From a virus, in IMG/VR virus record IMGVR_UViG_3300020724_000005: DNA of 64,000 nt; one strand, 5' to 3'. The translations under genes and the position numbers were made by a program. A model generated the notes under the pieces. That model searched no databases. It saw only the letters and a list, made by a program, of their open reading frames with translations, and was not told where the DNA came from. Of the stretch, positions 19,879 to 48,471 are shown piece after piece; position 1 is the stretch's first letter, and every line of letters starts with the position of its first letter.

Positions 19879-19997
19879 AAAATAAAAGTGGTCCAAAAAA
19901 TCTTCAGAGCTACGACCTTCTGAGATTGAATGGACCAATAAGTTTATTATAGATTACGTGTCGTAGTCGTAATATAATCTATAATAAATATCCAGCT
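19879..19997 (-). promoter_or_regulatory. structured HE leader, copy B
   Basis: P1 14 bp, 19943-19956 / 19975-19988. P2 TGGTCCA 19889-19895 / TGGACCA 19931-19937. L1 GTCGTAG 19960-19966 is complementary to CTACGAC 19910-19916. Confidence 0.6.
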
Positions 19998-21809: not shown

Positions 21810-22451
21810 TTATTTTGAAAACATATTATAATGTCTTGGATATATATGGAAGTTTGTAATAAACCAATGCATTTCTCCAATTTGTAAATTTAATTCTATA
21901 CTAACTTTTTCCATTAATTTTGCAAAAATATATTGATCATTACACCAACCCCAAATACAATCAATGCTTCTTGCGAACACTGTAAGATGTAGTTTTCCAT
22001 CGATTATAGTGAAGTTAAGCACGACGTTGCAGGGAGTGTCTGAGTCATACCTCTCTAACTCGTTTATGTCGTAATGAACTACTACTGCTCTTCTTGAATT
22101 GGGGTTCCTCTTGAGCTCTAGAATTGCACGATCTAACTGTCCGTTCTTATTCCAGAAGTATCCGTAGTTCGAATTGACCTCTGTTGTACCTGGGACGATC
22201 ATATTCTTCCATATCTTGGCACGCTCGGATATCTCTGTGGCGTCTCTGTTACCGGTCAGATACCAATGCCACTCGTACTCTGCATAGTCTTGATTGAACT
22301 TTCTCTCTGGCTCTGTGATGATCATCTGCATCGGATTCTCTAAAGTGAATGATGCATTGAACATCGTCTTTGTGCCTGAGAAGTCTTTGCCTGTAGACAT
22401 GATCTGTAGGTAAAGTTGCTTGAAGGCCTCATTTGCGTTTTTAAATCTCAT
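21810..22451 (-). CDS. ThyA-family pyrimidine C5 methyl/hydroxymethyl-transferase (short form, Asp at specificity position)
   Basis: EYEWHWYLTG, NPNSRRAVVV, TPCN (catalytic Cys), ARSIDCIWGWCND and FHIY. Only 213 aa and lacks the ThyA C-terminal segment. Confidence 0.85.
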   Translation of the reverse strand: MRFKNANEAFKQLYLQIMSTGKDFSGTKTMFNASFTLENPMQMIITEPERKFNQDYAEYEWHWYLTGNRDATEISERAKIWKNMIVPGTTEVNSNYGYFWNKNGQLDRAILELKRNPNSRRAVVVHYDINELERYDSDTPCNVVLNFTIIDGKLHLTVFARSIDCIWGWCNDQYIFAKLMEKVSIELNLQIGEMHWFITNFHIYPRHYNMFSK

Positions 22452-28797: not shown

Positions 28798-29088
28798 TTA
28801 TCCTAATATTGCTAAGACTTCTGTCTCTTTTGTAATGAAATAATCCTCTCCTGCAAGGCTGATCTTTGTTGTGCCCATCTTTGGTATAAGAACTACATCT
28901 CCTACTTTTAGGTTTGATGGGATCGTAGTGTCAGAGTTGTAGTTGTACGTACCCGAAGTCTCGATGACCTCTCCTGTCTCTGGGCGTTCTTTTCCCATGT
29001 CTGGTAGTATGATGTTGCCGACCATCTCCTCTGATGTCTCTACCGGCTTGAGTACTAAGTACCCATTTAGTGGTGTGATTTTGCTCAT
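28798..29088 (-). CDS. groS: GroES-type co-chaperonin (Cpn10)
   Basis: 96 aa. Shows the pattern ITPLNGYLVLKP..(loop)..IILPD....RPETGEVIE..G......VGDVVL. Confidence 0.85.
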   Translation of the reverse strand: MSKITPLNGYLVLKPVETSEEMVGNIILPDMGKERPETGEVIETSGTYNYNSDTTIPSNLKVGDVVLIPKMGTTKISLAGEDYFITKETEVLAILG

Positions 29089-30581: not shown

Positions 30582-30811
30582 ATTCTTGTTATTAATTCAT
30601 GTCTATCAACTTTTTCATTGTATCGTAGAGTTGGCCATAAGCTGCTCATCATTTCATCATCACACATTATCTCCGAAGCAACTTCTCTGTCTATCCAAAT
30701 TCTATCGATAGCATATCCACAAGTATTACTGAGAACTAAACTTATACCATATTTTCTCCAGTAAGATTCTGTTATGATGAGTATTGTATATTTTCCTATT
30801 TTCTTAATCAT
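30578..30811 (-). CDS. hypothetical protein (77 aa)
   Basis: ORF track. Overlapping start/stop chain with its neighbours. Confidence 0.55.
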   Translation of the reverse strand: MIKKIGKYTILIITESYWRKYGISLVLSNTCGYAIDRIWIDREVASEIMCDDEMMSSLWPTLRYNEKVDRHELITRI

Positions 30812-31782
30812 TGTGGTTTGTGTTTATAGTTATTGTATTTCCATGTATATCCGCCAGCTTTTTTTCTTTTACCAATACAACATTTTTGAATATTGGTAGA
30901 ACATATATTTAGACTTTTTGCGGCTGTTGCCATGCATGTCCAAAGTTTTATATAATTTCCTTCTAAGTCAGATTGAATTATCTTAATCGCATTATGATTA
31001 TTATCACCAGTAGATCTTAATCGTAATTTTTCACGTTTTTCTGGGCTCTTATTCGGATTTTTATCTCCTATAAAATTTAGTCTACTTTTAAAAGTATTAT
31101 CTTCTTTTTTTATATATGATTCTTGATCGAAGTATTTCCATCTATAATTTCCAGAAATAGATCCATTCTTGATAGCAGCACATATATTAGAATTTTTAAG
31201 ATTTACAAATAAAGCAGCTTGTTTTAAAGAATCAAAATTTCTTATTTCATCTAAAGTGCTTTTATCTAGCATTATCACTTTTCTAGTATAATACTTTTTA
31301 TTTTTATTAGTCTCCTTTATTTTATCTAAACCCTCTTTTGTAATTATATGCTTTTTTCTCATCTTTAATTTCTGCTCTTCAGTTCTTTTTTTGCCTCTTA
31401 AGGCTAATCCAACTTTTGCAGAATGCTCTAGTGATTTTTTTACGCCACTTAAAGCTTTAGATATTGCTTTAGAGTGAGCTAATCTCGCTTCTTCATAACA
31501 TCTAGAAGATATTACTATCCAATGACACTTAGGAGTAGATCCTCTTCCTCTACACATTCTCCAAAAAGAAAATGCTCTAGCTGGTATTGATGGATTAATT
31601 CTATAAAGTAACCAATGAGCGATAAAATGTTCTCTGGCTGTTAGTTTAACTAAATTAGAATTATCATCTAATCCACCTTCTGATTTAGGTATAATATGAT
31701 GTTGTTCATAATATGGTAATATTTTACTATCTCTATTCTTTCCTTTTTCTATTAATAAATTATAATGTTTTTGATAATTCAT
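30808..31782 (-). CDS. HNH homing endonuclease
   Basis: EQHHIIPKSEGGLDDNSNLVKLTAREHFIAHW, NUMOD3-like repeats, and an HTH-like C-terminus. Confidence 0.85.
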   Translation of the reverse strand: MNYQKHYNLLIEKGKNRDSKILPYYEQHHIIPKSEGGLDDNSNLVKLTAREHFIAHWLLYRINPSIPARAFSFWRMCRGRGSTPKCHWIVISSRCYEEARLAHSKAISKALSGVKKSLEHSAKVGLALRGKKRTEEQKLKMRKKHIITKEGLDKIKETNKNKKYYTRKVIMLDKSTLDEIRNFDSLKQAALFVNLKNSNICAAIKNGSISGNYRWKYFDQESYIKKEDNTFKSRLNFIGDKNPNKSPEKREKLRLRSTGDNNHNAIKIIQSDLEGNYIKLWTCMATAAKSLNICSTNIQKCCIGKRKKAGGYTWKYNNYKHKPQ

Positions 31783-31839: not shown

Positions 31840-34182
31840 CTAATGCCCCTCTTTCCAATTTTTACATAATGTTGGAGGAGCTTTTAAGTCTATGCTTATC
31901 TTTGTAGTATTTTCCATACAATCTTTTACTATTTGCATTGCCTCTTGAGCTCTGGAAGACTCTACTTCAGTAATCGTCTGGTCATGAATTTGAGCTATAA
32001 CTAATCCATCAATCCCAACAGATTTTAGTCGTCTATTTATTTGTATAGCTGCTCTATTTACTATTGAGGCAGCTAATGACTGTATACAATAATTGCGAGA
32101 GTTATTGATGCCATTGACGTAGTCCCTGTATATCTTGGTGACTTTCTCCTTACCATATTGTTTAGATAGCATGTTTCTGATTTGCCAATCTGTGATGCCG
32201 TCTCCGAGAGAATCGTATATCTTCTTGACTTTGTCCAAGTGTCTGATGCGACCTACTTGGGTCTTGACGTATCCTAAGGTCTGGGCTTGAAGTTTTGAGT
32301 CTGCCATCCACTGCTTCAATGCTGGAAAGCCGTTGAGGTATCCATCGACCAAGACTTGTGCCTTCTTCTGTGGTATGTCAAGGTTCATTCCTAGCGCGTA
32401 AGCTCCCATGCCGTAAGGGATGCCTAGCGCGTATGCTTTGGCTTTGTTCCTGAGCTGCGGTGCATGCTTTCTGAGGAAGTTCTCTGCCTTTTTATCTGGG
32501 GAATATTGGCTGAGATGCTCTGTCTTTATCGCGATCGTAGAATAAAAATCCCAGTTATTTCTGAAGATATCCTTGAGTCCTTCGTCGCCTGAGACATGGG
32601 CGAACACGTGAGGCTCCAAAGACTCATAATCGCAATCCACAAAGTCATTGCCCGTGTCGGATATAAAGAACGCTCTCACCAGGTTCGTGTACTCTACTAC
32701 TATCGGATCGTCTTCTCCTTCCTCTTTCGGCCTTGGAAGCTGTTGCGCGTCTGAACCATATCTGCCTGATACAGTCCCGTGCTGTTTATAATAAAAGAAA
32801 TATCTGCCGTCCTCTTGTGCATCCAAAAAGCGATCCATGTATGTAGACTTGATCTTTAGCAGCTTGCCATATATCCTGAGCTTAGACGCCCAAGAGTGTT
32901 TGTCAGCGATGCTCTGGATCAGATCATCATCGAATTGGGGTTTGCCCTTCTTGGTCTGAGACAGGGGTTTTATCCCAAGCGCATTGAATGCTATGTCACC
33001 CATCTGGTCTTTGGACTGTATGTTGAAGAACGTGCCATCGTTGTCTTTCTTCCACAACTTCATGCTTATCTTCTGCAGGTCTATATCGTCTAAAAGAAAG
33101 TCGTGTCCTTCTGACAGAAATCTTTTAACTTGTGAATCTGGCAGTTTGGAGACAGTGGATTTAGTGATGCTGTATTTCCCTGAAGCCTCTGACTTTGGCA
33201 GGTCTAGTTTAAAGTGCTCTACAGCGGCCTGAGCAAATGATCCCTTGTTGCTCGGAGGATATGCCTCTATCGCCTTGCATACTATCCAGTCTTTGATTTC
33301 CTGTCTGCCCACGAGGTCCTCTACCACAAGATCGTAGTACCGTTTCATGTCAAGATCTATCCTCTCTCTCGATGACTTGATGGTATCGATGTCCAGCTTC
33401 ACGCCTTTGTCTTCCATTGGTATGGTGACTTCTCTGTAAAGGGGCATGACCTCGTCCACAAAGAAGAAGCCCTCTAGCCCCTCGTCCTTTATCTTCTGCA
33501 GGTAGTATTTGTATATCCTTAGAGCAAGATCGGTGTCTGCACATGCGTATTTAGAGAGGATGTCTATGTCCGCCTTCCATATCTCGTAGTTCTCCTTCGA
33601 TGTAGATCCGCCGTTTGCGTGTATCGACTCCTTGAGCTCTATCTGCTCCTTGTTCGCCTCAGTCTCGATATCAATACCGATCTCTGTCTGTATGCTCTTG
33701 GCGATCTCCTTCAACGCAAAGGTACCTGCTCCGTACTCAGCGTTTGCACCTTCCTCTTGGACTGTGTGTACCATGAGTATCGTGTCTGCATGTATCGAGT
33801 CTATGAGATCTACGCCGTAGAAGTTCTTGACAAATCTGGTGTCGAAAGAGAGGTTGTGTCCGATGAGCTTTTTTCCTACAAGCAGTGCAATGGCACGTTT
33901 GGCTATGTCATGGCATAAAATACCATCAATAGACGCATTCTGGAGCTCATCGTTGACAAATAACATCGTCGGCATATAGAAACCTAGACCAACTTCTCCT
34001 GAGACAGAGAAGCCTATTATCTTGCCTTTTCTGGGGTTTAGCGAGTTTGTCTCTGTGTCAAAGGATATGAGATCATGGCTCTGTATGTGAGCTATCATTT
34101 CCTTGACTTTCTGAGAAGTATCTACTTTCAAATATGTCCTTTGTGTCATAAACTTTATTCTTCTTGTATGGGAATAGCTCAT
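31840..34182 (-). CDS. polA: family A DNA polymerase with 3-prime-5-prime exonuclease domain
   Basis: Exo motifs FDTETNSL, HNLSFD, YACADTD. Pol motifs A DYESLEPHV, B RNKAKAYALGIPYG, C AQIHDQ. The start may instead be the internal MTQRTYL. Confidence 0.95.
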   Translation of the reverse strand: MSYSHTRRIKFMTQRTYLKVDTSQKVKEMIAHIQSHDLISFDTETNSLNPRKGKIIGFSVSGEVGLGFYMPTMLFVNDELQNASIDGILCHDIAKRAIALLVGKKLIGHNLSFDTRFVKNFYGVDLIDSIHADTILMVHTVQEEGANAEYGAGTFALKEIAKSIQTEIGIDIETEANKEQIELKESIHANGGSTSKENYEIWKADIDILSKYACADTDLALRIYKYYLQKIKDEGLEGFFFVDEVMPLYREVTIPMEDKGVKLDIDTIKSSRERIDLDMKRYYDLVVEDLVGRQEIKDWIVCKAIEAYPPSNKGSFAQAAVEHFKLDLPKSEASGKYSITKSTVSKLPDSQVKRFLSEGHDFLLDDIDLQKISMKLWKKDNDGTFFNIQSKDQMGDIAFNALGIKPLSQTKKGKPQFDDDLIQSIADKHSWASKLRIYGKLLKIKSTYMDRFLDAQEDGRYFFYYKQHGTVSGRYGSDAQQLPRPKEEGEDDPIVVEYTNLVRAFFISDTGNDFVDCDYESLEPHVFAHVSGDEGLKDIFRNNWDFYSTIAIKTEHLSQYSPDKKAENFLRKHAPQLRNKAKAYALGIPYGMGAYALGMNLDIPQKKAQVLVDGYLNGFPALKQWMADSKLQAQTLGYVKTQVGRIRHLDKVKKIYDSLGDGITDWQIRNMLSKQYGKEKVTKIYRDYVNGINNSRNYCIQSLAASIVNRAAIQINRRLKSVGIDGLVIAQIHDQTITEVESSRAQEAMQIVKDCMENTTKISIDLKAPPTLCKNWKEGH

Positions 34183-36188: not shown

Positions 36189-36872
36189 TTATATATTAAT
36201 TTCACAACTATTTCCAGCACACGCAACTTGGTCCTTAAGGTCTGTGTTGTCTTCTGCCTCTACCACCAAGCTCAGATCTATGTTAGAAAGCGACTCCATC
36301 ATTTTTTCGTAAGTCTCTTTATCGCAGTCTTGGAAAGGTGCCTGAACGTAGGTGTGGTCTGAGAATGGCAGCACTGAAAGCCCGTTGTAGCAAGTCCTGT
36401 TCTCCCACATCCACTCTCCTACAGTGTCCCACTCTCCGTCCTTTATAGAGATCGTGGCCGAGATGTTGTGTGTGTTCTGTCCTGTCTTGTGTCCTGGTTT
36501 GATCCAGTTGTTGTAGAAGTATTTTACCCTCTCGAGCAGATCTATCGCTGACTCTGTCCTCAGTATCGAACCCTCTGGCGCTTTCTGTGGGACCGAGATG
36601 ACTGCCGTGCTGTGGGGCTTGAAGTACTCGTCCTGTATCAGCTCTGGGTGGTATATGCTCAGGTACGTGTATATGGCCTCGTTCTTGCCAACTCTTATGT
36701 TTCTGATGTAGTACTCGCTGTGCCACGCATGTATGCCAGAAGATGTGCCCAGGACTAGAGAGGAGGTATTATGAACCACAGATTTATTTTTTAGTTGATA
36801 TGAATGAGTATTATCTACTTCTATGTCAACAGTAAATTTATTTCCAGACTTTGTTATTTTTTTAATTTTCAT
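36189..36872 (-). CDS. nrdJ: class II ribonucleotide reductase, C-terminal fragment fused to a C-intein
   Basis: The first 35 aa (MKIKKITKSGNKFTVDIEVDNTHSYQLKNKSVVHN) look like intein blocks F and G. The extein resumes at TSSLVLGTSSG. Confidence 0.9.
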   Translation of the reverse strand: MKIKKITKSGNKFTVDIEVDNTHSYQLKNKSVVHNTSSLVLGTSSGIHAWHSEYYIRNIRVGKNEAIYTYLSIYHPELIQDEYFKPHSTAVISVPQKAPEGSILRTESAIDLLERVKYFYNNWIKPGHKTGQNTHNISATISIKDGEWDTVGEWMWENRTCYNGLSVLPFSDHTYVQAPFQDCDKETYEKMMESLSNIDLSLVVEAEDNTDLKDQVACAGNSCEINI

Positions 36873-38007
36873 AATATTTAATTAATTCTATTATATTTTC
36901 TAATACTAATTGCTTATTTTTTAAATAATTTGATTCTTTAACTCTAATTAAATTTAATCCCATATTAGCATATATCTTATCCTTTAATCTATCTCTCTCT
37001 ATATTATTAGGTAAAGAATGCCAATAATCTCCATCAAATTCAATTACAGTATTTCCTATTTTAATGTCTGGTACTATACACTTTATTTGATAATCATTCT
37101 GGTTTAGATTTATAAAATAGGGTTTTGTTATTGGGTAACCAAAAAATACCTCTTTTTGTTTATTGTTTAATAAATCATATAGTGATAAATTAAAATCTTT
37201 TTCTATATTTGAACTAAAATCTGGAAAATAACTAATTTTCTTTTTTATCATATCAGAATATAAATTCCGACCCTCTACTTCTCCAAATTTATCTATATAA
37301 TATTCTAATCTTCCAGATTTTCCTTTACTATAACATAATTCTTTATATCTATTTAAGCCTTCAATTTTTCCAAATTTAGAGATATAATAGTCTTTAGTCT
37401 GTGAATATGCTATTTTTTTATTAGCCTCATCATATTTTTCCTTTCCTATATTATCACCATACTTTTTTATATAATAATCTAACCCTCTTGATTGATTCTT
37501 ATTAACAAACTGTTTAGCTTCTAATTCACTTACTCCATAATATTTCATTACAGATTTATAATCTCTACAAGAATACCCACTGTCTATTTTCTTTTTATAT
37601 CTTAATCTACCCTCTTTTTCTCCATATTTTTTTATCATGCTTTCCAAGTCAGTCTTTGAATTAATAGAGTGTTTTGCTTTAATGTCTTTTATTTCATCAT
37701 CACTATATCCATTTAATTTTAAAGCATTTATACTAACTGAAAGTTTACTATTTTTTTCTAAATATTCCTCTCTACCTAACTCCTCCCCGTATCTTTTAAT
37801 GAATCCATTTAGGGTATTTTTAAACTTATCATTTTCTATTTTTTGTTTATATTTAAATAAGCCTAACTCTTTTCCGTATTTAAACTGTAATACTTTTAAA
37901 GAAGACCCTCGCATTAAATTTGCACATCTCTTGTTGCCCCCCTCTTCTCCAAGTAGATGAATCAGTAGTCGTCTCAGTCTATTAATCTTTTTTATATCTT
38001 TTTTCAC
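36862..38007 (-). CDS. free-standing homing endonuclease, Vsr/DUF559-like PD-(D/E)XK domain
   Basis: Six K(Y/F)G.E.G...Y repeats. C-terminal VIEFDGDYWH...RD..KD. GTG start at 38007. AT-rich. Confidence 0.8.
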   Translation of the reverse strand: MKKDIKKINRLRRLLIHLLGEEGGNKRCANLMRGSSLKVLQFKYGKELGLFKYKQKIENDKFKNTLNGFIKRYGEELGREEYLEKNSKLSVSINALKLNGYSDDEIKDIKAKHSINSKTDLESMIKKYGEKEGRLRYKKKIDSGYSCRDYKSVMKYYGVSELEAKQFVNKNQSRGLDYYIKKYGDNIGKEKYDEANKKIAYSQTKDYYISKFGKIEGLNRYKELCYSKGKSGRLEYYIDKFGEVEGRNLYSDMIKKKISYFPDFSSNIEKDFNLSLYDLLNNKQKEVFFGYPITKPYFINLNQNDYQIKCIVPDIKIGNTVIEFDGDYWHSLPNNIERDRLKDKIYANMGLNLIRVKESNYLKNKQLVLENIIELIKYYEN

Positions 38008-38008
38008 A

Positions 38009-38058
38009 ATTAAGCCTTTTATTATAAATATCTGATTAATTACAATAATAGGCTTAAT
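38009..38058 (-). promoter_or_regulatory. hairpin enclosing the ATATTTAT motif just upstream of the GTG start
   Basis: Stem ATTAAGCC 38009-38016 / GGCTTAAT 38051-38058. The loop contains TTTTATTATAAATATCTG. Confidence 0.45.
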
Positions 38059-38071
38059 AGTAAAAATTAAT

Positions 38072-39682
38072 CTAATAATTTATAATATCATCATCATCCT
38101 TCAATTCGTCTGCTCTAACCCACCCCCTATTTTTAGTTAAAAACCTATGATTTGCTGTAACTGTAACTACCAAACCATCTTCAAACTCCACATCAAACGT
38201 TTCTTCTACTCCATTAATGTATAATTTATTAATTTGTTGCCATTCATCATTTAAATCTTTGACTTTTATATCCTCTGTTACTTCTAAAAATAGCTTTTCG
38301 TTATTTTTAAAATCAGATAAGTCATATCCATTGATTTTAAAAATATCCTCTAATGAGAGAATACCTTTATTTGTTATTATTTCAGTTTCTGGTATCATGC
38401 ACCCACTCGGTTTTATTGTAGTGCAACGGGCTGCTGCGTTTATCCCTACCGCTTTCGCTACTGCTGCGTTCGTCTCTTTCACTATGAGAGCGGCCTTTTT
38501 AAGATCCAGCTTCTGAGCAACTCCTGACCCTATTCCAGTCATTCCTACTCCTATTAGTGCTTCTTTCTCTGTAGTCTTCTGCCATATTGGTCTGAGATAG
38601 TGAAAGTTAGTGTATCCTGCTTGTAAAGTCCCTATTATCGCTGCTGCATTTACTCTGTCATTAAGATCTTCTTGGTCTACTACGTCTGAAACATTTACCT
38701 CGCAAAGGTTGCAAAATTGATATGGTCTTAGTGCAATTTCCATACAAGGATTACTTCCTAAATCTTTATCATTACTAAGAAATATACCCGGTTCTCCTGA
38801 TCCCGAGTTCTCAATCTTCTTCCAGAGATCCATAAAGAATTCCTTTGTAAGTCTATTCCTTAAAAGTACAGCCGAGTTATTCGCTCTACCCCTTTGCGGA
38901 TTTAATTCCCACCATTGACCAGTCTTACAAGAGATCATATCCTCATCGTCAGCTGAGAATAGTGATACTAATGCCGCTCTCCTTATACCCCCAGCAAGTA
39001 CTGCATCAGCTATGTGGCAGACCATGTCGTGAACCTCTATCGAGCTGAGTTTATCTCCATCCTCTTTCTGGCTGAGTATTCCATCTAACATTAGTAAGCA
39101 CTCTTTCAGTGGTTGAGGACCTGGAGCTTTACCGCCAGAAGTAACTAGCATTGCTCCTTTTGGACGTATGTCAGAGAAGTCAAAGTTAATCGATGATCCA
39201 CCTCTGAAATAGGACTTGATCAGGGCTTTGACTGCGTCTGCCCAACCCTCTATCGAGTCTCCTATCAGGAACCTTGTGTGCTTCTTTGGGTTCGGTTTCC
39301 TTATCTCTGGCAGCTTCTCAACGTGGTGCTTCTGTACAGAGAAACCTACTCCCGTGCCACCAAGCAGCAGGAACATCGTCTCAGAGAAAGCGTGTATGTC
39401 GTCTATAGGAAGGTACGCGCAGTTATACACTCTGTTAGGAGATATCTCTATCGACTTTCCACCGAACTGCAGGCTCCTCATAGAAGGAAGCACCTTTTTA
39501 TCATATACGAATTCATAAGCCCAGTCTATCTCAGCTTGCATATTGGGATATTTCTTGAGATGCATTGCCTTGTTTCTGTCTACCAATTCTTCCCAAGACT
39601 CTCTCTTCTGTAGTTCTGGGAGGTATTTGGAATATTTTAAGTGTACTGTAATATCTGATAATATTTCCTGTGAGATATTCAT
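38072..39682 (-). CDS. nrdJ: class II ribonucleotide reductase, N-terminal fragment fused to an N-intein
   Basis: GGTGVGFS, GGIRRAA, SNPCMEI and TTIKPSG, followed by the 109-aa intein N-half (Cys1, TxxH block B) and a stop. Confidence 0.9.
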   Translation of the reverse strand: MNISQEILSDITVHLKYSKYLPELQKRESWEELVDRNKAMHLKKYPNMQAEIDWAYEFVYDKKVLPSMRSLQFGGKSIEISPNRVYNCAYLPIDDIHAFSETMFLLLGGTGVGFSVQKHHVEKLPEIRKPNPKKHTRFLIGDSIEGWADAVKALIKSYFRGGSSINFDFSDIRPKGAMLVTSGGKAPGPQPLKECLLMLDGILSQKEDGDKLSSIEVHDMVCHIADAVLAGGIRRAALVSLFSADDEDMISCKTGQWWELNPQRGRANNSAVLLRNRLTKEFFMDLWKKIENSGSGEPGIFLSNDKDLGSNPCMEIALRPYQFCNLCEVNVSDVVDQEDLNDRVNAAAIIGTLQAGYTNFHYLRPIWQKTTEKEALIGVGMTGIGSGVAQKLDLKKAALIVKETNAAVAKAVGINAAARCTTIKPSGCMIPETEIITNKGILSLEDIFKINGYDLSDFKNNEKLFLEVTEDIKVKDLNDEWQQINKLYINGVEETFDVEFEDGLVVTVTANHRFLTKNRGWVRADELKDDDDIINY

Positions 39683-40014: not shown

Positions 40015-41400
40015 TTACTTGGAAAGTTCAAAGAATTTCTTACTCAGTATGGATTTCTCTTCAAAAGTCAGACTAGAGCTGTTAGAGGTTTTGAAAGCGT
40101 TGTTCGTAGCTGCCTGCATTGCGTGTATCTCTTCTTCTGTTAGCTCTGTCTCATCTATCTTTATCGTACCGTTGTCCGTGTCGATCATCGCATTGTACGT
40201 CATACCGTCTTGTCCATATCGATTTTTCATGATGTGCACTCTACCTGTCTTGTTGAGTTTGTCTGCTCTCTTTCTGGACAGAGACAGTATGAAGTCTGCG
40301 ATCATGATCTTGTTGTACGATCCTGCTGCCTTGTCACCTTCTACGATGTCATCCTTTGCCCCAGCCCTGTTCACCTGAGACACAGACCATACGGGAATGT
40401 TCAGCTCTCTTGCCATGCCTTTCACCGCGGTGTACACGTCATCTATCTCGTCCTTTACTTCTCCTCCGACCCTTTTTGACTTCAATAGGTCTATGTAGTC
40501 GATGATGATCAGATCAGGTTTGTGTCCCATGTCGGTGCACTTCCTTATGTGAGACTCTATCTTGTTGACTGTGGTCTTGCCCATTGGGAACTCAGCTATC
40601 GTCAGTCTGCCTGGTAAGTTTGCTACTGTCTCTTCTACCTTGCTACGATGCAGGTGGACTTCCTTGAAACCTATGCCGGTGAACACAGAATCGTACCTCT
40701 TGCCTGTGTAGATGTCTGAGAGCTCTAGCGTGTAGTGGTTGACAGTGAGCGCCTGCTTGACTGCCTCAGCTCCTATGTTGACCAGAAACCAAGACTTGCC
40801 TGAGCCTGGTCCTCCGAATATTATGCCAAGGTCTCCTCTTCCAAGTCCTCCCATGAGATGATCGCTTATCTTTGGCCATGGAGTAGGCACTGCCCTTCTG
40901 TCGTCTTCTCTGTACCTCTGCTCTATGTCTTGCAAATACTCGTGTCCTACGTTCTTGTCTGCACCGGCTTTTAACGCAGAATCTATCATGATCCTTATGT
41001 CTTCAAACTGGCCTTTGGAAAGCAGATCTACGGAATTGAGTAGCGCCTTCTTTAATTGCTGGTTCTTGCAGAAGCTTGAGAACTCCAGTTCTATGTACTC
41101 CTTGTCTTCGTTCGCCGTCTTTAACGCCTCTTTCAACTGCTCTGCTACCGAGACCCTGAGGACCTCGTTGTCTATCTTTTTGACTTCTATCTGAAGATAT
41201 TCTAGTGACGGTGTGGTATGATATTTGTAATAATACTTTAGAATGTCTTTGACTATCCACTGTGACGCCGGCGAATCGAACATCTCTGGCTCTACAACGT
41301 CGTGTATCGTCTGTAGGAACTCTTTATGACGTAAAAGTGAAGCAAGAACTTTTATTTGAAATCCACTTCCATACGCGTTGAGCGTGTTTAATTGTGCCAT
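40015..41400 (-). CDS. dnaB: DnaB-family replicative helicase
   Basis: GGPGSGKSWFLVN (Walker A), DLIIIDYIDLL (Walker B) and SQVNRAG. Start set at MAQLN (41400), just after the upstream HE stop. The track ORF extends to 41442. Confidence 0.9.
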   Translation of the reverse strand: MAQLNTLNAYGSGFQIKVLASLLRHKEFLQTIHDVVEPEMFDSPASQWIVKDILKYYYKYHTTPSLEYLQIEVKKIDNEVLRVSVAEQLKEALKTANEDKEYIELEFSSFCKNQQLKKALLNSVDLLSKGQFEDIRIMIDSALKAGADKNVGHEYLQDIEQRYREDDRRAVPTPWPKISDHLMGGLGRGDLGIIFGGPGSGKSWFLVNIGAEAVKQALTVNHYTLELSDIYTGKRYDSVFTGIGFKEVHLHRSKVEETVANLPGRLTIAEFPMGKTTVNKIESHIRKCTDMGHKPDLIIIDYIDLLKSKRVGGEVKDEIDDVYTAVKGMARELNIPVWSVSQVNRAGAKDDIVEGDKAAGSYNKIMIADFILSLSRKRADKLNKTGRVHIMKNRYGQDGMTYNAMIDTDNGTIKIDETELTEEEIHAMQAATNNAFKTSNSSSLTFEEKSILSKKFFELSK

Positions 41401-41407
41401 AACTTTA

Positions 41408-42127
41408 TTATATATTTGGTTTTTTATATTTGCACTTATCAAAATGCCACTGAGTCATTCCGTTATTTCCTCCAATTTTATTACAATGCGGACATTGTAT
41501 TTTTGGATTTTTTATTCCTAATCTATTAGTATTTCCTATTTTAGATATGCTCAATTTTCTTTTATGTTCTTCTGATTTAGATTTTCCCTTAAGAGCTCTG
41601 CTAATATTTGCCTTCTCTAATTCTGATTTTACTCTATTTTTTTGACCTTTAGAAATTGATTCTCTATGTTGTAAAGATAAACATATCCCTAATTTAGATT
41701 TTCTTATATTTAATTTAGTTTCTTCTGATCTTACTTTTCCCGTATTCGATTCTTTCATCTTTTTTTTAGTATCATCAGAAACTAAATGGCCTTTTCTGGA
41801 TAATCTATATAATCGTTTTGTTTCTTCAGAATGTTTAAAACCAAATTGACCTTGTCCACCATCTGTCATATTAACTAAAGGTCCCAATTTAAGATCTGCT
41901 CTTCCATAGAATATAATCCAAAATTTTTCTTTTTCACAGGCTTCTTCCCAAGTTAACCATTCTTCTGACATAATTTCTACTTTATATTCTGTAAGATTAA
42001 TCACATTATTCCAATGAATATTTCTGTTCTTTTTTGAATAAGATCTTTTATAGTTTTTATCTGATCCTATTCCTATATAAAAAACCTCATTCTTGTCTAG
42101 TCTTATATGACGATACACATATGCCAT
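41408..42127 (-). CDS. GIY-YIG homing endonuclease with CPHC..HFDKC zinc-finger tail
   Basis: Start moved to MAYVYRH. FYIGIGS, NUMOD3 repeats, and C-terminal CPHCNKIGG..WHFDKCK. Confidence 0.9.
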   Translation of the reverse strand: MAYVYRHIRLDKNEVFYIGIGSDKNYKRSYSKKNRNIHWNNVINLTEYKVEIMSEEWLTWEEACEKEKFWIIFYGRADLKLGPLVNMTDGGQGQFGFKHSEETKRLYRLSRKGHLVSDDTKKKMKESNTGKVRSEETKLNIRKSKLGICLSLQHRESISKGQKNRVKSELEKANISRALKGKSKSEEHKRKLSISKIGNTNRLGIKNPKIQCPHCNKIGGNNGMTQWHFDKCKYKKPNI

Positions 42128-42236
42128 AAAATAAAAATGGTCCAAAGTGACAAAGAGCCTGCATGCTCTCTATCTCAAAGGACCAATAAGTTCTATTATA
42201 GATAACTCATGCAGGAGCTTCTATCTATAATAAATA
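42128..42236 (-). promoter_or_regulatory. structured HE leader, copy E
   Basis: P1 42194-42204 / 42222-42232. P2 TGGTCC 42138-42143 / GGACCA 42180-42185. P2a AGAG/CTCT. L1 CATGCAGG 42208-42215 is complementary to CCTGCATG 42158-42165. Confidence 0.6.
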
Positions 42237-43133
42237 TCAGGAAATACTTGCTAAATACTTAAAGTTTGTGTATAGCCACGAAGGTAGGTTTGTGATGCTC
42301 TGTCCCAGTTGATCTTCGTTATACATCTCTGTAAACTCTGTTGGATAGTAGTCCTTCTTTGGGTTGCCCATCATCTGGTCTATCTCCTCTTGTGCCTCTG
42401 CTGGTATGTTAGGCTCGTCTAGGTCCATGAGCTTCTTGTTGATCTCTAGCTGGCTTCTGAAGTCGTAGATCTTTTTGAGCATTGCAACATCGCCGTCCTT
42501 GCACTTCTCTATGACATGCTCTAGACTGATAGTAGCACTTTTTCCTAACTCTGGAAAGTGTTTAAGCAAAGTCTTGATGCCTAATCCCTTTACCCCAGGA
42601 ACGTTGTCTCCTTTGTCGCCAAGCAGCACCTTCTGGGTTAGAAAGTTGTGAGACGTCACTTCGTACTCGCTCAAGACGTCTTTTGGAGAATAGAACTTCT
42701 TCTTTGTAGGTGAGTATATGCTGATCCTGTCCGATGCAAGCTGAAGGTAATCTCGGTCCGAAGACATGATGGTCACCTCTTTTCCTATGCGCTTTGCTAT
42801 GTATCCTATGACATCGTCTGCCTCTATCTTGTCTATCGATAGCAGATCTATGGGAAGACATTTGAGGTAGTCCACGAGCCTCAGAAGCTGGTTCTTGATG
42901 GCATCAGACTCCTCTTCTTGGGAATCGAACATGTCCCAGTTTGTGATTCTCTTTATACCCCTATTTGCTTTGTACTCAGGATAGAGGTAACGCTTATTTG
43001 TTGAGCTACCGCGGCCATCAAATACTACTATGACACGTGTTGGTCTTATCAGTCTCATCCCATATGCCATCGACTTGAGAAACCCAGTTAGAGCTCCTAT
43101 GTGCTGTCCAGCTGGGTTCACGTGCTGGATCAT
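42237..43133 (-). CDS. 5-prime-3-prime exonuclease / flap endonuclease (T4 RNase H-like)
   Basis: YPEYKANR, ADDVIGYIA, SSDRDYLQL and LGDKGDNVPGVKGLGIKT. Confidence 0.9.
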   Translation of the reverse strand: MIQHVNPAGQHIGALTGFLKSMAYGMRLIRPTRVIVVFDGRGSSTNKRYLYPEYKANRGIKRITNWDMFDSQEEESDAIKNQLLRLVDYLKCLPIDLLSIDKIEADDVIGYIAKRIGKEVTIMSSDRDYLQLASDRISIYSPTKKKFYSPKDVLSEYEVTSHNFLTQKVLLGDKGDNVPGVKGLGIKTLLKHFPELGKSATISLEHVIEKCKDGDVAMLKKIYDFRSQLEINKKLMDLDEPNIPAEAQEEIDQMMGNPKKDYYPTEFTEMYNEDQLGQSITNLPSWLYTNFKYLASIS

Positions 43134-43279: not shown

Positions 43280-43843
43280 TTAATTTTTATATTTACAATT
43301 ATCAAAATGCCACTGGATCATATTACTCTTATTTGCTATTTTTTTACAATGCGGACATTGGGCCAAAGGCCTATTTTTAGCAGATTCACTTTGTGCAATT
43401 TTAGTTTTTTCTGATGTTTTTAATTCTTTATTCCACGTATTCATTCCAATGAAAAATGATCCTGAATTTACTTTATGTGGAAATTTTTTATCTTTATTCC
43501 ATGGAATTCTATTTTTAATACTTTCAATATAGCATTGTTTAGCTTCTACTGATATTCTTATACTATGTCTACCTGTATTTTTATCTTTAATGCACATTAA
43601 ATGAAAAGCATATGTTAATTTTTTATTTTCAGGAAAACTTCTATGTAATAACCAGTGCGCTAATATATGCTCTCTAATAGTTAATAAAACTATATTTTTA
43701 TTGTTTGTATTTCTTCTATCACCAATTCCTCCCAAACATATTGGCACTATGTGATGAGACTCGTAATAAACCTCTTTATTTTTTGTTCTTTTCTCCAATT
43801 TACATTTGCAGACTAATCTATTATATATTTTTAAGTAATCCAT
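43280..43843 (-). CDS. HNH homing endonuclease with CPHC..HFDNC zinc-finger tail
   Basis: Start moved to MDYLKIY. ESHHIVPICLGG....N..NIVLLTIREHILAHW. C-terminal CPHCKKIAN..WHFDNCK. Confidence 0.85.
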   Translation of the reverse strand: MDYLKIYNRLVCKCKLEKRTKNKEVYYESHHIVPICLGGIGDRRNTNNKNIVLLTIREHILAHWLLHRSFPENKKLTYAFHLMCIKDKNTGRHSIRISVEAKQCYIESIKNRIPWNKDKKFPHKVNSGSFFIGMNTWNKELKTSEKTKIAQSESAKNRPLAQCPHCKKIANKSNMIQWHFDNCKYKN

Positions 43844-43963
43844 AAAATAAAATGGACTCATTGAAGTCAAAGGTCGGGCAATGACCAATGATTCTAGAGT
43901 CCAATAAGTTTATTATAGATAGTTAATTGCCCTAACTTTCTATCTATAATAAATACTTGATTT
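43844..43963 (-). promoter_or_regulatory. structured HE leader, copy F
   Basis: P1 14 bp, 43909-43922 / 43940-43953. P2 TGGACTC 43853-43859 / GAGTCCA 43897-43903. P2a GGTC/GACC. L1 ATTGCCC 43926-43932 is complementary to GGGCAAT 43876-43882. Confidence 0.6.
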
Positions 43964-45046
43964 TTAAGAATCTTCAATATCAAATATATCATTTTTTGAT
44001 GGATCCTCTTCTTCTACAATATCAAATATCTCAGAACCTAGCGCCTTTATCCACTCATGCGAATATTCATTTTTATATTTACTTATCGCTGATGGAGAAT
44101 CATCAATAAAACCATGCACTGTCATTATAACTTTGCCTACAGCTGTAACTCCAGTTATGTGATTTTTATCGCATGAAATTCTAGTTCTCTTAGCAAATTC
44201 CACGTCTTTTCCATTTTTTGTAGCTTTTATTTTATTAGTCCCCGCCTTTGAAATATTCCCGAAAGTGATTACAAGAGTAGAGTCAAACCACATAGTATTA
44301 CCTCCTTTATTTTGTAAAGTTGGTTGTCCCATTGGATTATCTGGTTTTGCTACCCAAACTTTATTTATTGCTACAAGTGTATTGGTGTAGGGTTGGCTCT
44401 CCTTTCTCGACATAATGATACGTTGATTGATGAAGTTGCCAAATTGAGTCGACATAGCACCTGCAGCCCACTCATTATTATTAGTGGATTTTTCTATGCT
44501 CAGACGACAAGGTATAGACCCCACCGAGTCCCACAGAAAGCATATGTCATACGGTAGATTGCCTTTCTTCTGCTCGTCTAAGATGTCTGCCATAAATCCC
44601 GCCACGTCCTCTACGCACTGCATCTTTTCCCTGTCTACGTATATGAAGAAGCCACTGTAATCTACCACTTCTCCTGTTGACTTATCGACGACCTCATCAA
44701 ATTGTAAACCCATTGACCTTGCGTGCTCCCAAGACCATTTCATCTCGGTAACTATAAACACTGGGAGTATGCCCATCTTTTGAGCTTGCACTGCTGCTTC
44801 TAATAGCGCAGTAGTCTTGCCAGTATCTGAGTGTCCTCGTAGTAGAGTGATGTGTCCTATCGGTATGCCAGGGATCTGAAGTGTATCACTGAAAGCCTTG
44901 GAGAGAGGTATCCACCTCGTCTCCTTGAACTTTACAGATGTGCTTGATAGGTTCTTGGACTTCTTGAATTTGTCCAGATTGAATTCGCCTTTGATGGCTG
45001 TAGAGAGAGCCCCATTGAGGCTCTCTTTCTTTTCTGATTTTGCCAT
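43964..45046 (-). CDS. RecA-superfamily recombinase-like ATPase (UvsX/RecA-like)
   Basis: GHSDTGKTTALLEAA (Walker A) and ICFLWDSVGS (Walker B-like). Lies next to the SSB gene. Confidence 0.65.
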   Translation of the reverse strand: MAKSEKKESLNGALSTAIKGEFNLDKFKKSKNLSSTSVKFKETRWIPLSKAFSDTLQIPGIPIGHITLLRGHSDTGKTTALLEAAVQAQKMGILPVFIVTEMKWSWEHARSMGLQFDEVVDKSTGEVVDYSGFFIYVDREKMQCVEDVAGFMADILDEQKKGNLPYDICFLWDSVGSIPCRLSIEKSTNNNEWAAGAMSTQFGNFINQRIIMSRKESQPYTNTLVAINKVWVAKPDNPMGQPTLQNKGGNTMWFDSTLVITFGNISKAGTNKIKATKNGKDVEFAKRTRISCDKNHITGVTAVGKVIMTVHGFIDDSPSAISKYKNEYSHEWIKALGSEIFDIVEEEDPSKNDIFDIEDS

Positions 45047-45064: not shown

Positions 45065-45922
45065 TTAGATATTGAAGAGATCATCAATTTTTGCATCGAT
45101 ATCACTCTTCTTTGTGCTCAGTGAAAACGACTTGGTCTCTGCCTTAGTCTCTTTCTTCTTAGGCTTTTCTTCCTGCGTTTCCCAAGAAAGATCTCCGCCT
45201 GGGATCTCTGGAGCGTTGTCTGGTGCGATGACTACCTCTGGCTTGTCTGTCTCCTCTTCTGGGTTCAGGTGTGCTTGTAGCGCTGCCTTCATCTCATCGT
45301 AAGAGTAATGCTTGTACGTATCCAGTGGATTTGGCTGTTCTGTGAGCCACTTCTTGATCTCTGATTCCTTCTCAGACAGAGGAGTCACCTTGCCTCTCAC
45401 CCTTACTTTTGACTGGTTGAAGTTTGTGCCGTTCTGCTCTGGAGATGTCGTCTCGATCGTGATATCGCGTCCAGAGATGGGATCTGTGTAGTCGCCAACG
45501 TCTTCGTCTTCCATGATCGCCAAAAGCTCCATGAAAACCTGCTTGCCGAATTCCCAAAGCATGACGCCTTTGTCTTCTTCGCCACGCACTATCACTGGCA
45601 CCATGACCCTCATCTTTGGTTCCATCTTCCTGGCCAGCTGCCAATCCTCCTTGTTAGAAGACTTACGTAGCTTCTGAGTGAACTCTGCGATCGGATCTTT
45701 CTCTCCATGACACGCTGGAGACATCATCGTCTTGTTGTTGATCCCGTAGTAGATGTAGATCTCCTTGAACGGGTTTGTCTTGTCGAAAACAGACGGGAGT
45801 ATTCTCACCGAGTGTTTGCCTACTGCTGATCTCCATAGAGTCTTGGGTTGATCAGATTTGGAACCCTTTGGGTTCTGAAGTGACGCTAGTCTACTTCTCA
45901 ATGCTGCAACGTCTATTGCCAT
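45065..45922 (-). CDS. single-stranded DNA-binding protein, gp32-like
   Basis: VRILPS...NPFKEIYIYYG, ...SPACHGEKDPI, and an acidic C-terminal tail DIDAKIDDLFNI. Called by pattern and position only. Confidence 0.55.
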   Translation of the reverse strand: MAIDVAALRSRLASLQNPKGSKSDQPKTLWRSAVGKHSVRILPSVFDKTNPFKEIYIYYGINNKTMMSPACHGEKDPIAEFTQKLRKSSNKEDWQLARKMEPKMRVMVPVIVRGEEDKGVMLWEFGKQVFMELLAIMEDEDVGDYTDPISGRDITIETTSPEQNGTNFNQSKVRVRGKVTPLSEKESEIKKWLTEQPNPLDTYKHYSYDEMKAALQAHLNPEEETDKPEVVIAPDNAPEIPGGDLSWETQEEKPKKKETKAETKSFSLSTKKSDIDAKIDDLFNI

Positions 45923-45982: not shown

Positions 45983-46405
45983 CTATGAAGTCGCCACTAT
46001 CTTGTGTACGAGGGTGTTTAATTTTCGAAATGCGCTGCCTTGCGTCAGGAGCATTGAGTTTCTGTACTCTTGCCAGTTTATAGGGAACTTGTTGTCCATC
46101 ATGCCGTTGTTCAGGCTCATGATCAAGGTATTCAGCGCGTTTATCGTGTAGAGCGTGTTGCTCTCTTTCTTTCTGTGTAGAAGGATCGTGTTGTTCAGCA
46201 TCCGTGTCTCATGTCCTTCGACCTCGATGTTGTATGTGCACATGTACTCGTCAGACTCTGGAGACGTCAACACGAAGATCTTGCTGTATAGGATCTTGTA
46301 TTGGCCGTTTATCTCTGCCAATCTTTCTTCGAGTCTTTCTTTGGGTGTGAAGCTGCAAAAGAGCCTATTCATTAATGAGTCTTGCGTTAACGTGATCGTT
46401 GTCAT
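45983..46405 (-). CDS. hypothetical protein (140 aa)
   Basis: ORF track. TATAAATAT motif upstream. Confidence 0.8.
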   Translation of the reverse strand: MTTITLTQDSLMNRLFCSFTPKERLEERLAEINGQYKILYSKIFVLTSPESDEYMCTYNIEVEGHETRMLNNTILLHRKKESNTLYTINALNTLIMSLNNGMMDNKFPINWQEYRNSMLLTQGSAFRKLNTLVHKIVATS

Positions 46406-46434: not shown

Positions 46435-47739
46435 TTAGTCGAAAAAATAGTCTTTTGAGTGCTTGTGTTTTACCCTGAATCCGTCTTCTTCGAGTATCTG
46501 CTTGACTCTGATGAGGAACTCCTTGCCTTCCTGTACCGAGTAGTCAAACAGGAAGGCGTCGTAGGTTATCAGCACCAGCTGGCTTGTCTTTCCTGACATG
46601 TACTCCCTAAGCCTCTCTATCTTCTGTACATTGTTTTTGGTCTCTAGATTCTGCACCCAATAGTTAAATAGCTTGAGCTTGTTCATCTCTGGATTCTTTC
46701 TGAGCAATGTCCCTGTTGGAAGTATCAATGAACCGTCTCTCTTGTACCTCTTCCAGATCTCGTCTATGAAGTCTCCAAGCTTTGAGAAGAAGGGGAACTC
46801 CTTGTACTGGTCATCTATCCCTCCGTACAACTGCTTAAATGTGATCTCCTTTGATTTATGATACTCCTCTTCTGTCAGCTCTTCCTTGCCAAAGTATATC
46901 TTGCCTAGCTGCATGTGTATCGACTGGTCTTGATCTTCAAACTCGTGTCCTATCTGCCGTGCTATGAGTCTCAAATGATACGAGTCAAAATCGAACTCAA
47001 CCAAATAATCATGTCTTGGAACGAAACACCGTCTGAACTCTCTGGTCTTTGGTACTGCTACGAAGTTTATGCCGTTGAAAGAGTTGGTAGGTCTGCCTGT
47101 GGTGTTGTACATGTTGTAGTACGAGTATACCAGCCCACCTTTTACGAAGCTCCTTTTTGACTGCACTGCGTACGTGTCGTCTAGTGCCTCTTCATCTATG
47201 GCGACGCCCTGCCTCTCTACCCATCCGTATGCCTCACAGGCTCTGTCTAATATACTGTGATCATTCTCAAGGTCAAACAGGGACTGGACTTTGTTATAGA
47301 GACACTGGCACCTCTCGTAGTGCTTCGTTATCGGCAGGATCTCGTTTAGGTTTGGAAGAGCGCCCATCCTCATGTAGAAGTCGCTGTGTATCATCGTATC
47401 GCACTCTAGCTTTGATCCGTCTATACCCTGGTCCATCCTCGTGAAGTTCAGATCTACTGCGTTATCGATCTGGAGAAAGTACGAGTGGAACTTCCTATCG
47501 AGCAAGTAGACTTTCTTGTGCGAGTTTATGAAAGATTGAATCTGGGCTATTTCTAGGCTGAATCCTTCGCTATGGTTTACGGGGAATATGTAACCTTTGG
47601 CTCCATCATTATAGTAGACCAGTGAGCATCTGGATAGCCTAGGATGATACCTGTCTGAAGATGATACTACTTGAATGAAGCACGATTCGCTTGGAGAGAG
47701 CTTTGAGAGCTGCTCTGATGTTTCTATGATAAAGTACAT
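46435..47739 (-). CDS. divergent family-A DNA polymerase-like protein (compact, 434 aa)
   Basis: TTGRPTNSF..NFVAVPK, FDFDSYHLRLIA (motif A-like), KSKEITFKQLYGG (motif B-like), NYWVQNLE and LITYDAFLF (motif C-like). The N-terminal exonuclease motifs are degenerate. Confidence 0.7.
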   Translation of the reverse strand: MYFIIETSEQLSKLSPSESCFIQVVSSSDRYHPRLSRCSLVYYNDGAKGYIFPVNHSEGFSLEIAQIQSFINSHKKVYLLDRKFHSYFLQIDNAVDLNFTRMDQGIDGSKLECDTMIHSDFYMRMGALPNLNEILPITKHYERCQCLYNKVQSLFDLENDHSILDRACEAYGWVERQGVAIDEEALDDTYAVQSKRSFVKGGLVYSYYNMYNTTGRPTNSFNGINFVAVPKTREFRRCFVPRHDYLVEFDFDSYHLRLIARQIGHEFEDQDQSIHMQLGKIYFGKEELTEEEYHKSKEITFKQLYGGIDDQYKEFPFFSKLGDFIDEIWKRYKRDGSLILPTGTLLRKNPEMNKLKLFNYWVQNLETKNNVQKIERLREYMSGKTSQLVLITYDAFLFDYSVQEGKEFLIRVKQILEEDGFRVKHKHSKDYFFD

Positions 47740-47799: not shown

Positions 47800-48471
47800 T
47801 TAAGTCGTAGGTCTTGCCCATTTGCTGTATTGTCCTCCTATGAAGTCTGTCATCCCTATCATAGTCTTGTTGAGCTCTTCAGTCAGCCGTTTGTTGGTGT
47901 CGATTATTCCAGCTCGAGTATCGTATTGGGATATCCTCACGGCGTTTAGTGAACCTGTCAACTTCCACATCATCTGCCCTGTCATATACATAGATATGTC
48001 ATACGGAGCAGTTCCGTTCTGTATGTTCGTGTATTCTTCTGGAGATATCTCTATCACGTACCCTCTGTCGTTCGTCTTCTTTGCAAAGTATCTTATCAGG
48101 TATCCTCTGCCGTAGTCGTCTGATATAGGAGACGGGTAGTAGGGCACAGGTCCTCCTCCCAAGTTGATGGGACTGTTTTGCTGCTGAGTTGATTTCTTTG
48201 AAGACACAGAACTCCTGTCTAGAGTTGCTGCTATCAACGCCTGTTGCAGAGATTGTGGAAGCGCTGGGTTAGAAAGCACAGAAGATGCCTTGGTGTCTAG
48301 AACGGGTTTCAACGGCTCACTTGGACCTTGTAGCGGATCTGGTCCTGTGAAAGCAGTGCCATCATACGCCACATAGTACTTTCCTACATAAGGAGCGCCA
48401 TTCAGCGTGAAGTCTCCTCCAGCTGTGTTCTGGTTTGTCTGTATCCTAGAAGATGGGTAGTATCTCAGCAT
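47800..48471 (-). CDS. hypothetical protein, last gene of the tail/baseplate block
   Basis: ORF track. Starts 4 nt after the 1434-aa gene. Confidence 0.75.
   Translation of the reverse strand: MLRYYPSSRIQTNQNTAGGDFTLNGAPYVGKYYVAYDGTAFTGPDPLQGPSEPLKPVLDTKASSVLSNPALPQSLQQALIAATLDRSSVSSKKSTQQQNSPINLGGGPVPYYPSPISDDYGRGYLIRYFAKKTNDRGYVIEISPEEYTNIQNGTAPYDISMYMTGQMMWKLTGSLNAVRISQYDTRAGIIDTNKRLTEELNKTMIGMTDFIGGQYSKWARPTT

Follow-up and report, generated by a model that had tools for sequence, protein, structure and literature searches.

The window analysed here is the whole 64,000-nucleotide stretch of viral DNA held as IMG/VR record IMGVR_UViG_3300020724_000005, and its minus strand carries, besides a canonical PolA of 780 amino acids (aa), a gene for a protein of only 434 aa. 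The initial annotation, made by eye from the letters, had proposed this open reading frame (ORF) as a second, compact and very divergent family-A polymerase, an assignment with which profile and structure searches agree. The ORF is not a new kind of polymerase: it is a divergent member of divPolA1, a family described computationally and named by Yutin, Tolstoy, Mutz, Wolf, Krupovic and Koonin (2024, Virol J 21:200, PMC11348598), of which Flavobacterium phage immuto is a named carrier. The gene and its landmarks, numbered against the Klenow fragment of Escherichia coli Pol I, are the following.

46435..47739, minus strand: divPolA1-type gene for a compact family-A DNA polymerase, 434 aa plus stop, ATG start (ORF, homology to immuto, AlphaFold2 model, Foldseek)
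47266..47739, minus strand: residues 1-158, 3′-5′ exonuclease-like domain, predicted inactive (motif replacements in 140 representatives)
47104..47265, minus strand: residues 159-212, thumb remnant with the conserved E175-x2-G178 motif (motif spacing, DSSP of the model)
47077..47103, minus strand: residues 213-221, TTGRPTNSF, the TGR motif; R216 corresponds to R668, and R216 and P217 are invariant in 141 sequences
46960..47004, minus strand: motif A, LVEFDFDSYHLRLIA; D250 corresponds to D705 (141 of 141) and H255 to the steric-gate E710 (138 of 141)
46816..46869, minus strand: motif B or O-helix, EEYHKSKEITFKQLYGGI; Y293 corresponds to R754, K297 to K758, F301 to F762 and Y305 to Y766
46636..46668, minus strand: FNYWVQNLETK; N359 corresponds to N845 and Q363 to Q849, and E366 is invariant
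46540..46578, minus strand: motif C, LVLITYDAFLFDY; Y393 corresponds to H881, D394 to D882 and A395 to E883

Residues were mapped by aligning the protein with solved Pol I chains in HMMER and with Klenow in hhalign; the alignments further equate T214-G215-R216 with T666-G667-R668, R257 with R712 and H275 with H734. Every peptide string on which the initial annotation had relied is found in the ORF at the expected place (VERQGVAIDEEAL at residues 174-186, FDFDSYHLRLIA at 249-260, IHMQLGKIYFG at 274-284, KSKEITFKQLYGG at 295-307, NYWVQNLE at 359-366 and LITYDAFLF at 390-398), and both kinds of alignment bear out the motifs it had assigned: the catalytic Asp, Lys, Phe and Tyr are kept, a His stands at the steric-gate Glu, and the Glu of motif C is absent. 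Its account of the thumb held only in part, since ERQGVAIDEEAL is indeed the base of the thumb, while the thumb proper, as had gone unnoticed, is essentially deleted.

The AlphaFold2 model of the protein, built on an alignment of 38 homologs, has a predicted local distance difference test score (pLDDT) of 93 and a predicted template-modelling score of 0.91. The Foldseek search of the PDB, a check that had been proposed at the outset, gave Pol I-type DNA polymerases and nothing else among the best 50 matches (E 1e-18 to 1e-16), headed by the Plasmodium apicoplast polymerase, Bst, Klenow, Mycobacterium smegmatis Pol1 and KlenTaq; the query-normalised template-modelling score is 0.60-0.71 over the whole chain (0.65-0.71, with E about 1e-18, for the apicoplast enzyme, Bst, Klenow and Taq), and the corresponding BFVD list is headed by viral PolAs. 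The polymerase fold is thus upheld along the full length of the protein, and the match implies an exonuclease fold in the N-terminal third and palm and fingers in the remainder. At the level of Pfam profiles, the DNA_pol_A match covers residues 202-307 (E 9.7e-7) and scores 28.5 bits, below the gathering score of 34.3 bits. Measured against PF00476, the protein has the Klenow-like fold, falls short of the gathering threshold and lacks both the gate Glu and the H-D-E form of motif C. Since 21 of 48 diverse divPolA1 members match DNA_pol_A at E <= 0.01, Pfam annotation misses more than half of them. In the hhalign comparison the family profile matches Klenow at E 7e-10 and the resident PolA at only E 0.019, the latter match being limited to motif A; on this ground a recent duplication of the resident PolA was rejected as the origin of the gene.

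Conservation was assessed in 140 cluster representatives, 27-48% identical to the query, which together with the query make 141 sequences. Six residues are invariant (D250, D394, K297, R216, P217 and E366), among them the two catalytic Asp whose conservation among homologs had been named as a point to check; Y360 and Q363 are kept in 99%, H255, D399 and Y393 in 98% (the last in 138 sequences), Y305 in 136 (96%) and F301 in 134 (95%). Position 395, after the Asp of motif C, is Ser in 107 sequences (76%), Ala in 33 (23%) and never Glu, and position 293, the equivalent of R754, is Tyr in 101 (72%) and Arg in 11. Comparison with homologs 82-90% identical gives a ratio of non-synonymous to synonymous substitution rates (dN/dS) of 0.03-0.06, and the gene is under strong purifying selection.

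What has been lost is equally consistent. The N-terminal third, rightly described from the start as a decayed exonuclease domain, has I4, H85 and Q145 at the positions of Klenow D355, D424 and D501, so that this protein has lost all three exonuclease Asp and with them three of the four DEDD carboxylates, and E6, the Exo I Glu, is the only exonuclease carboxylate largely kept. Among the representatives the Exo I Asp position (D355) is always I, L or V and the Exo II Asp position (D424) is F, L, T, I or H, whereas the Exo III Asp position (D501), Q here, is still E or D in 62%; the Asp replaced family-wide are therefore the two at D355 and D424. These positions were assigned by motif and secondary-structure register and not by superposition, because the global hhalign alignment of the N-terminal domain to Klenow is unreliable. 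Between the VERQGV/ExxG motif and TGR lie 39 residues, against 125 in Klenow, a segment about 85 aa shorter (35-43 residues in most family members, counted from ExxG to TGR), in which DSSP finds a single 7-residue helix of the model in place of the thumb helices. The hhalign alignment also reveals an O1/O2 region of the fingers that is shortened relative to Klenow, and a helix equivalent to Klenow 684-692 that is about 4 residues shorter. Judged by the residues, the polymerase active site appears intact and the proofreading site dead, and of the thumb almost nothing remains.

Homology to the named family is unambiguous over the length of the protein, with immuto gp001 matching at 33.6% identity and 99% coverage in a tblastn search of phage genomes (E 9e-79; blastp 3e-89); the tblastn search also found Microcystis phage Mel-JY01 and LR756508, an uncultured phage of 484 kb. 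Window and immuto are collinear; at the nucleotide level, the 12 kb surrounding the gene matched nothing in the phage collection. In its treatment of divPolA1, PMC11348598 reports the family from 14 genomes, with conserved palm catalytic residues, a truncated thumb and replacement of all three exonuclease Asp, in phages that always encode a regular polymerase as well, from family A, B or C, beside GroEL/GroES and that carry conserved replication genes downstream of divPolA1. Homology, palm, thumb, exonuclease domain, regular polymerase with chaperonin and downstream replication genes are all found here as well. Being only 34% identical to the protein of the isolate immuto, the ORF belongs to a separate, mostly metagenomic branch. 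For divPolA1 phages a genome of 155-190 kb is described; the window covers 64 kb, and the 140-aa protein encoded next to the gene recurs in identical form on a contig of 157,862 bp.

The family is far larger than those genomes suggest. A word-indexed search returned 2619 homologs. When the 50%-identity representatives were searched exhaustively, 1381 clusters matched at E <= 1e-3, of which 629 reached E <= 1e-30; among the matches listed, nearly all full-length representatives have 399-471 aa, and a few are shorter and fragment-like. IMG/VR contains 467 divPolA1 loci, and a search of 185,579 GTDB species genomes, bacterial and archaeal, yielded no relative or prophage. divPolA1 is among the smallest natural family-A polymerases and is abundant in environmental myoviruses; no description of a family this short was met in the 2023 reclassification of PolAs into 19 clusters. 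In the literature the term divPolA1 was met only in PMC11348598 and its preprint.

The gene stands at the head of a conserved set of replication and recombination genes, listed here with the protein encoded upstream.

47800..48471, minus strand: 223-aa protein immediately upstream (66 of 66 loci; weak match in LR756508)
45983..46405, minus strand: 140-aa protein immediately downstream, fold without match, candidate partner (conserved in four deep lineages)
45065..45922, minus strand: gp32-like single-strand DNA-binding protein (SSB; Pfam gp32, E 5e-14)
43964..45046, minus strand: UvsX/RecA-like recombinase (PHROG UvsX-like, E 6e-17; Pfam RecA)
42237..43133, minus strand: 5′-3′ exonuclease or flap endonuclease (FEN; Pfam 5_3_exonuc_N, E 1.6e-28)
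40015..41442, minus strand: DnaB-type replicative helicase (Pfam DnaB_C, E 2e-23)

Read in gene order, the tail sheath, tube and hub genes are followed by a 1434-aa protein with a lysozyme domain, the 223-aa protein, divPolA1, the 140-aa protein, the SSB, UvsX/RecA, a homing endonuclease, FEN, a second homing endonuclease, DnaB and a class II ribonucleotide reductase and, after other genes, by PolA, GroES and GroEL. The annotation of these neighbours confirms the proposed position of the gene at the junction of the tail/baseplate and replication regions; the conserved 140-aa neighbour had been missed in that account. The same order is common to immuto, Mel-JY01, LR756508, a 169-kb contig and 80 IMG/VR loci. 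In these loci, counted only where the flanking sequence suffices, the 140-aa neighbour is adjacent in 63 of 70, the SSB is present in 46 of 46, RecA in 34 of 34, and FEN and DnaB in 20 of 20 each. The 223-aa protein has no family match in Pfam or PHROG, and the 60-nt spacer upstream of divPolA1, inspected for a promoter, contains nothing convincing. All three lineages of divPolA1 phages in the phage collection (immuto, Mel-JY01 and LR756508) have a gene for a DnaG-type primase, that of immuto being gp091, with Toprim, DnaG_N and zinc-ribbon signals.

The 140-aa neighbour has 5065 homologs and is 52% identical to immuto gp002, 44% to a 129-aa protein of Mel-JY01 and 42% to its counterpart in LR756508, which makes it more conserved across deep lineages than divPolA1 itself (42-52% against 30-34%). 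It has no Pfam, PHROG or PDB-profile match, and its AlphaFold2 model, obtained from a shallow alignment of sequences 68-90% identical, reaches a pLDDT of 53 and has no significant Foldseek match, the weak ones being ferredoxin-like. This weak model suggests a beta-alpha-beta N-terminal half. A near-invariant motif, LLHRKKE(S/T)NT(L/M)YTINALN, is kept even in the Microcystis phage. Some relatives, the 484-kb phage LR756508 among them, have about 1.4-1.5 kb inserted between divPolA1 and this small neighbour. At least four ORFs of homing-endonuclease type (HNH or NUMOD) lie among the replication genes, at 43280..43888, 41408..42145, 30808..31782 and 19159..19938, all on the minus strand; two have no counterpart at the same place in immuto, and the ORF at 41408..42145 shares 35 nt with the start of dnaB.

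The regular polymerase and its chaperonin neighbours lie further along the same strand.

31840..34182, minus strand: regular 780-aa PolA with intact DEDD proofreading domain (Pfam DNA_pol_A, E 1.2e-60, and DNA_pol_A_exo1)
28798..29088, minus strand: GroES, 96 aa, near the regular PolA
26771..28432, minus strand: GroEL, 553 aa, near the regular PolA, as in divPolA1 phages

This PolA, correctly recognized as canonical from the beginning, is 53% identical to immuto gp199 and retains all DEDD exonuclease and polymerase catalytic residues, which makes it a credible proofreading replicase. In this enzyme, as in the PolA of immuto, Leu replaces F762 of Klenow, and motif C reads H-D-Q and not H-D-E. 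At equal evolutionary depth divPolA1 is 52-54% identical, against 60-77% for RecA, DnaB, FEN and PolA.

Among characterized polymerases, divPolA1 resembles Klenow, Bst and KlenTaq in combining an exonuclease-like domain with palm and fingers and in the alignment of the TGR motif and motifs A, B, 6 and C, and it shares a vestigial exonuclease domain with Taq and Bst. It differs from the Klenow type in being about 170 aa shorter, in lacking the thumb helices and the O1/O2 segment, and in having His, Ser/Ala, Tyr and Tyr at the positions of E710, E883, R754 and H881, and from bacterial Pol I in having no fused 5′ nuclease, a separate FEN gene being present in the operon. Two other groups of supernumerary PolAs invite comparison. 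The APEX/CHEAP enzymes, of which APEX is described as exonuclease-inactive, of low processivity and probably a repair enzyme (Czernecki et al. 2023, PMC10201439), are likewise additional PolAs that leave the main enzyme in place, and they also have a ‘broken’ thumb; compared by description, they are unlike divPolA1 in being full-length and cellular and in having Leu at F762, where divPolA1 has Phe. The divPolA2 family, as presented in PMC11348598, is likewise a divergent extra PolA without a normal thumb that occurs beside a regular polymerase, but it has a novel N-terminal domain and no exonuclease domain, variable genomic contexts and structural matches to RNA polymerases.

Given these features, divPolA1 is on balance probably an active, distributive and non-proofreading auxiliary DNA polymerase of a recombination or lagging-strand module. 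The initial annotation had left open whether the protein is an active but specialized enzyme or a non-catalytic paralog; the invariant catalytic residues and the dN/dS favour the former. The protein would represent the family-A DNA polymerase in minimal form, with some 275 aa of polymerase domain that retain a working two-metal palm and the O-helix, an exonuclease domain that is structurally intact but presumably catalytically dead, and a thumb that is nearly gone. It would add dNTPs (deoxynucleoside triphosphates) to a primer 3′ end under the direction of a template, in short distributive patches, and the module that it heads across deep phage lineages, with the 140-aa protein, the gp32-like SSB, UvsX/RecA, the flap endonuclease and DnaB, suggests what its substrates might be: primers to be extended, gaps left after flap or primer removal, and recombination D-loops. 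Bulk, accurate synthesis would be the task of the 780-aa PolA. Activity, use of dNTPs, distributive behaviour and substrate are all inferred; the auxiliary, short-patch role is suggested by the architecture of the protein, its persistence despite exchanges of the main polymerase, its faster divergence and the behaviour of a thumb-truncated Klenow, which is active yet less processive (Minnick 1996, as cited in PMC10061031). Since divPolA1 is kept while the main polymerase is swapped among families A, B and C, it must do something that the replicase cannot, and a dissection of its role would show how labour is divided in a phage replisome with two polymerases. The substitutions at the steric gate and in motif C, together with the missing thumb, amount to a natural test of which PolA elements are dispensable, and a polymerase domain of about 275 aa could serve enzyme engineering.

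Several points weigh against an auxiliary polymerase of this kind. The replacement of E710 by His, of E883 by Ser or Ala, and of R754 and H881 by Tyr means that kinetics and substrate choice may be unusual. In Pol I the O1/O2 region assists strand displacement, and its shortening here argues against classic nick translation by strand displacement. T4-like phages mature their Okazaki fragments without a second polymerase, which leaves the need for divPolA1 unexplained. It is divPolA1, moreover, and not the regular polymerase, that has the replication-gene context according to PMC11348598, so that it could be more central than ‘auxiliary’ implies. The family is known from computation alone, the accounts of divPolA1 in PMC11348598 and the preprint containing no biochemistry.

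The altered active site raises the question of whether the enzyme is instead a polymerase for unusual substrates, which we consider quite unlikely: the changed residues at the steric gate and in motif C would then widen or readjust the nucleotide pocket, be it for lesion bypass, for ribonucleotides or the ends of RNA primers, or for modified dNTPs. The conservation of His at the E710 position (98%), Ser/Ala at E883 and Tyr at R754 are compatible with such a function, as is the exonuclease-dead, low-processivity design, which is akin to that of repair enzymes like APEX, Pol theta and Pol nu. Immuto encodes a 7-deazaguanine pathway, and the window a short thymidylate-synthase-like protein. However, that pathway includes the DNA transglycosylase DpdA, which exchanges the base after replication, so that no special polymerase is needed, and there is no damage-response gene in the context. 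The Que and DpdA genes of immuto are missing from the portion of the window that is syntenic with this phage, and a link to 7-deazaguanine DNA modification is not supported; a bulky His could, besides, still exclude the 2′-OH. It is decidedly unlikely that divPolA1 is the principal replicative polymerase and that the exchangeable regular polymerase has another role. PMC11348598 does report a conserved replication context for divPolA1 and a regular polymerase that is swapped between families and lies amid chaperonin and nucleotide-metabolism genes, and here too GroEL and GroES lie beside PolA; yet a genome of about 160 kb would then be copied without proofreading and almost without a thumb, no clamp or other processivity factor was identified, and the regular PolA, with all its motifs complete, is the better conserved of the two. 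The opposite extreme, a non-catalytic paralog that acts only as a scaffold or DNA-binding subunit, would account for the loss of E883, R754 and the thumb and for the sub-threshold Pfam score, but both metal-binding Asp and the equivalents of K758, Y766, F762, R668 and Q849 are kept without exception or in at least 95% of sequences that share 27-48% identity with the query, which is not the pattern expected of a dead enzyme and makes this reading very improbable. As for the likeness to single-subunit RNA polymerases pointed out initially, it is confined to motif C, of which the family consensus is actually YDSF; T7-type enzymes have HDSF. A miniature DNA-dependent RNA polymerase for transcription, to which the absence of the steric-gate Glu would also be suited, is barely credible, since the family profile finds Klenow and has no detectable similarity to T7 RNA polymerase (hhalign, E 0.54), the best 50 structural matches are all DNA polymerases, a promoter-recognition domain does not fit into 434 aa with an exonuclease-like N-terminal domain, and the gate residue is His and not the Gly of T7 RNA polymerase.

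The small neighbour brings in a further possibility, rather improbable as well, that divPolA1 binds the 140-aa protein and that the two, in the manner of CCPol-MP, serve the nearby helicase by initiating DNA (or RNA) synthesis de novo on a template of single-stranded DNA. In staphylococci, CCPol is a truncated PolA with a shortened thumb that acquires primase activity only in complex with a small protein whose gene lies directly downstream, a helicase gene following further on, and the CCPol-MP of SCCmec (Bebel 2020, PMC7581432; Rice 2023, PMC10061031) thus has in common with the present system a trimmed PolA with a short thumb, a small downstream gene, an operon helicase and coexistence with other polymerases. 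The shortening by about 4 residues of the helix equivalent to Klenow 684-692 fits as well, for a shorter helix is thought to leave room for the triphosphate of the initiating nucleotide; the conservation of the small neighbour in four deep lineages, above that of the polymerase, also speaks for it, and such pairs have been argued to have arisen repeatedly (Rice 2023, PMC10061031). Evidence of homology between the two systems nevertheless stops at the PolA fold. The 140-aa protein is not detectably an oligonucleotide/oligosaccharide-binding (OB) fold, a separate gp32-type SSB is present, and CCPol keeps E710, where divPolA1 has His. The helicase of CCPol-MP follows immediately after the partner and is of the D5/Cch type, whereas here the SSB, RecA, FEN and two homing endonucleases intervene and the helicase is of the DnaB type; CCPol-MP comes from islands of Bacillota, and the carriers of divPolA1 are aquatic myoviruses. 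The DnaG-type primases of immuto, Mel-JY01 and LR756508 also count against priming by divPolA1, and they weaken the idea of a substitute for a missing primase. In a broader version, divPolA1 and its neighbour would form a two-subunit enzyme, an independently evolved analogue of CCPol-MP or of the step taken by Bacillus DnaE or eukaryotic Pol alpha. The small protein might replace the missing thumb or hold the template, through its His gate and Y-D-S motif C the enzyme might initiate chains or accept the ends of RNA primers, and the product would then pass to the replicase of the phage, be it of family A, B or C. Because an OB fold of the partner is not established, DnaB is not adjacent and DnaG is present, this version, too, is held to be unlikely.

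Compared with the 2024 description, the family size and the conservation statistics, including those for the steric-gate His and the Y-D-S/A-F motif C, are new, as are the conserved 140-aa neighbour, the co-occurrence with DnaG and the analogy to CCPol-MP; the text on divPolA1 in PMC11348598 mentions neither the His, the motif C form, the neighbour nor DnaG.

Some other genes of the window deserve a brief description. The class II ribonucleotide reductase (36189..39682, minus strand) is apparently split into three ORFs in three frames: the first, of 536 aa, comprises the N-terminal part of the enzyme and ends in a weak intein-splicing match, the second, of 381 aa, has a REase_MTES_1575-like endonuclease domain, and the third, of 227 aa, matches the C-terminus, while a related contig encodes a single reductase of 617 aa. 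Either a homing endonuclease housed in an intein or intron or a disruption of the gene could account for the arrangement. The thymidylate-synthase-like protein mentioned above (21810..22451, minus strand, 213 aa) has no blast match to the 423-aa ThyA of immuto and could be a ThyA or a pyrimidine hydroxymethylase. At 15610..17968, minus strand, ORFs of 312 aa and 186 aa both match a single 480-aa glycosyltransferase of immuto, gp181, and the 235-aa ORF without a family match that lies between the two (16666..17373) suggests a gene-splitting insertion. The sugar and glycosyltransferase region further includes an island at 8001..12000 with a guanine-cytosine content of 26-27%, against 40-46% in most of the window.

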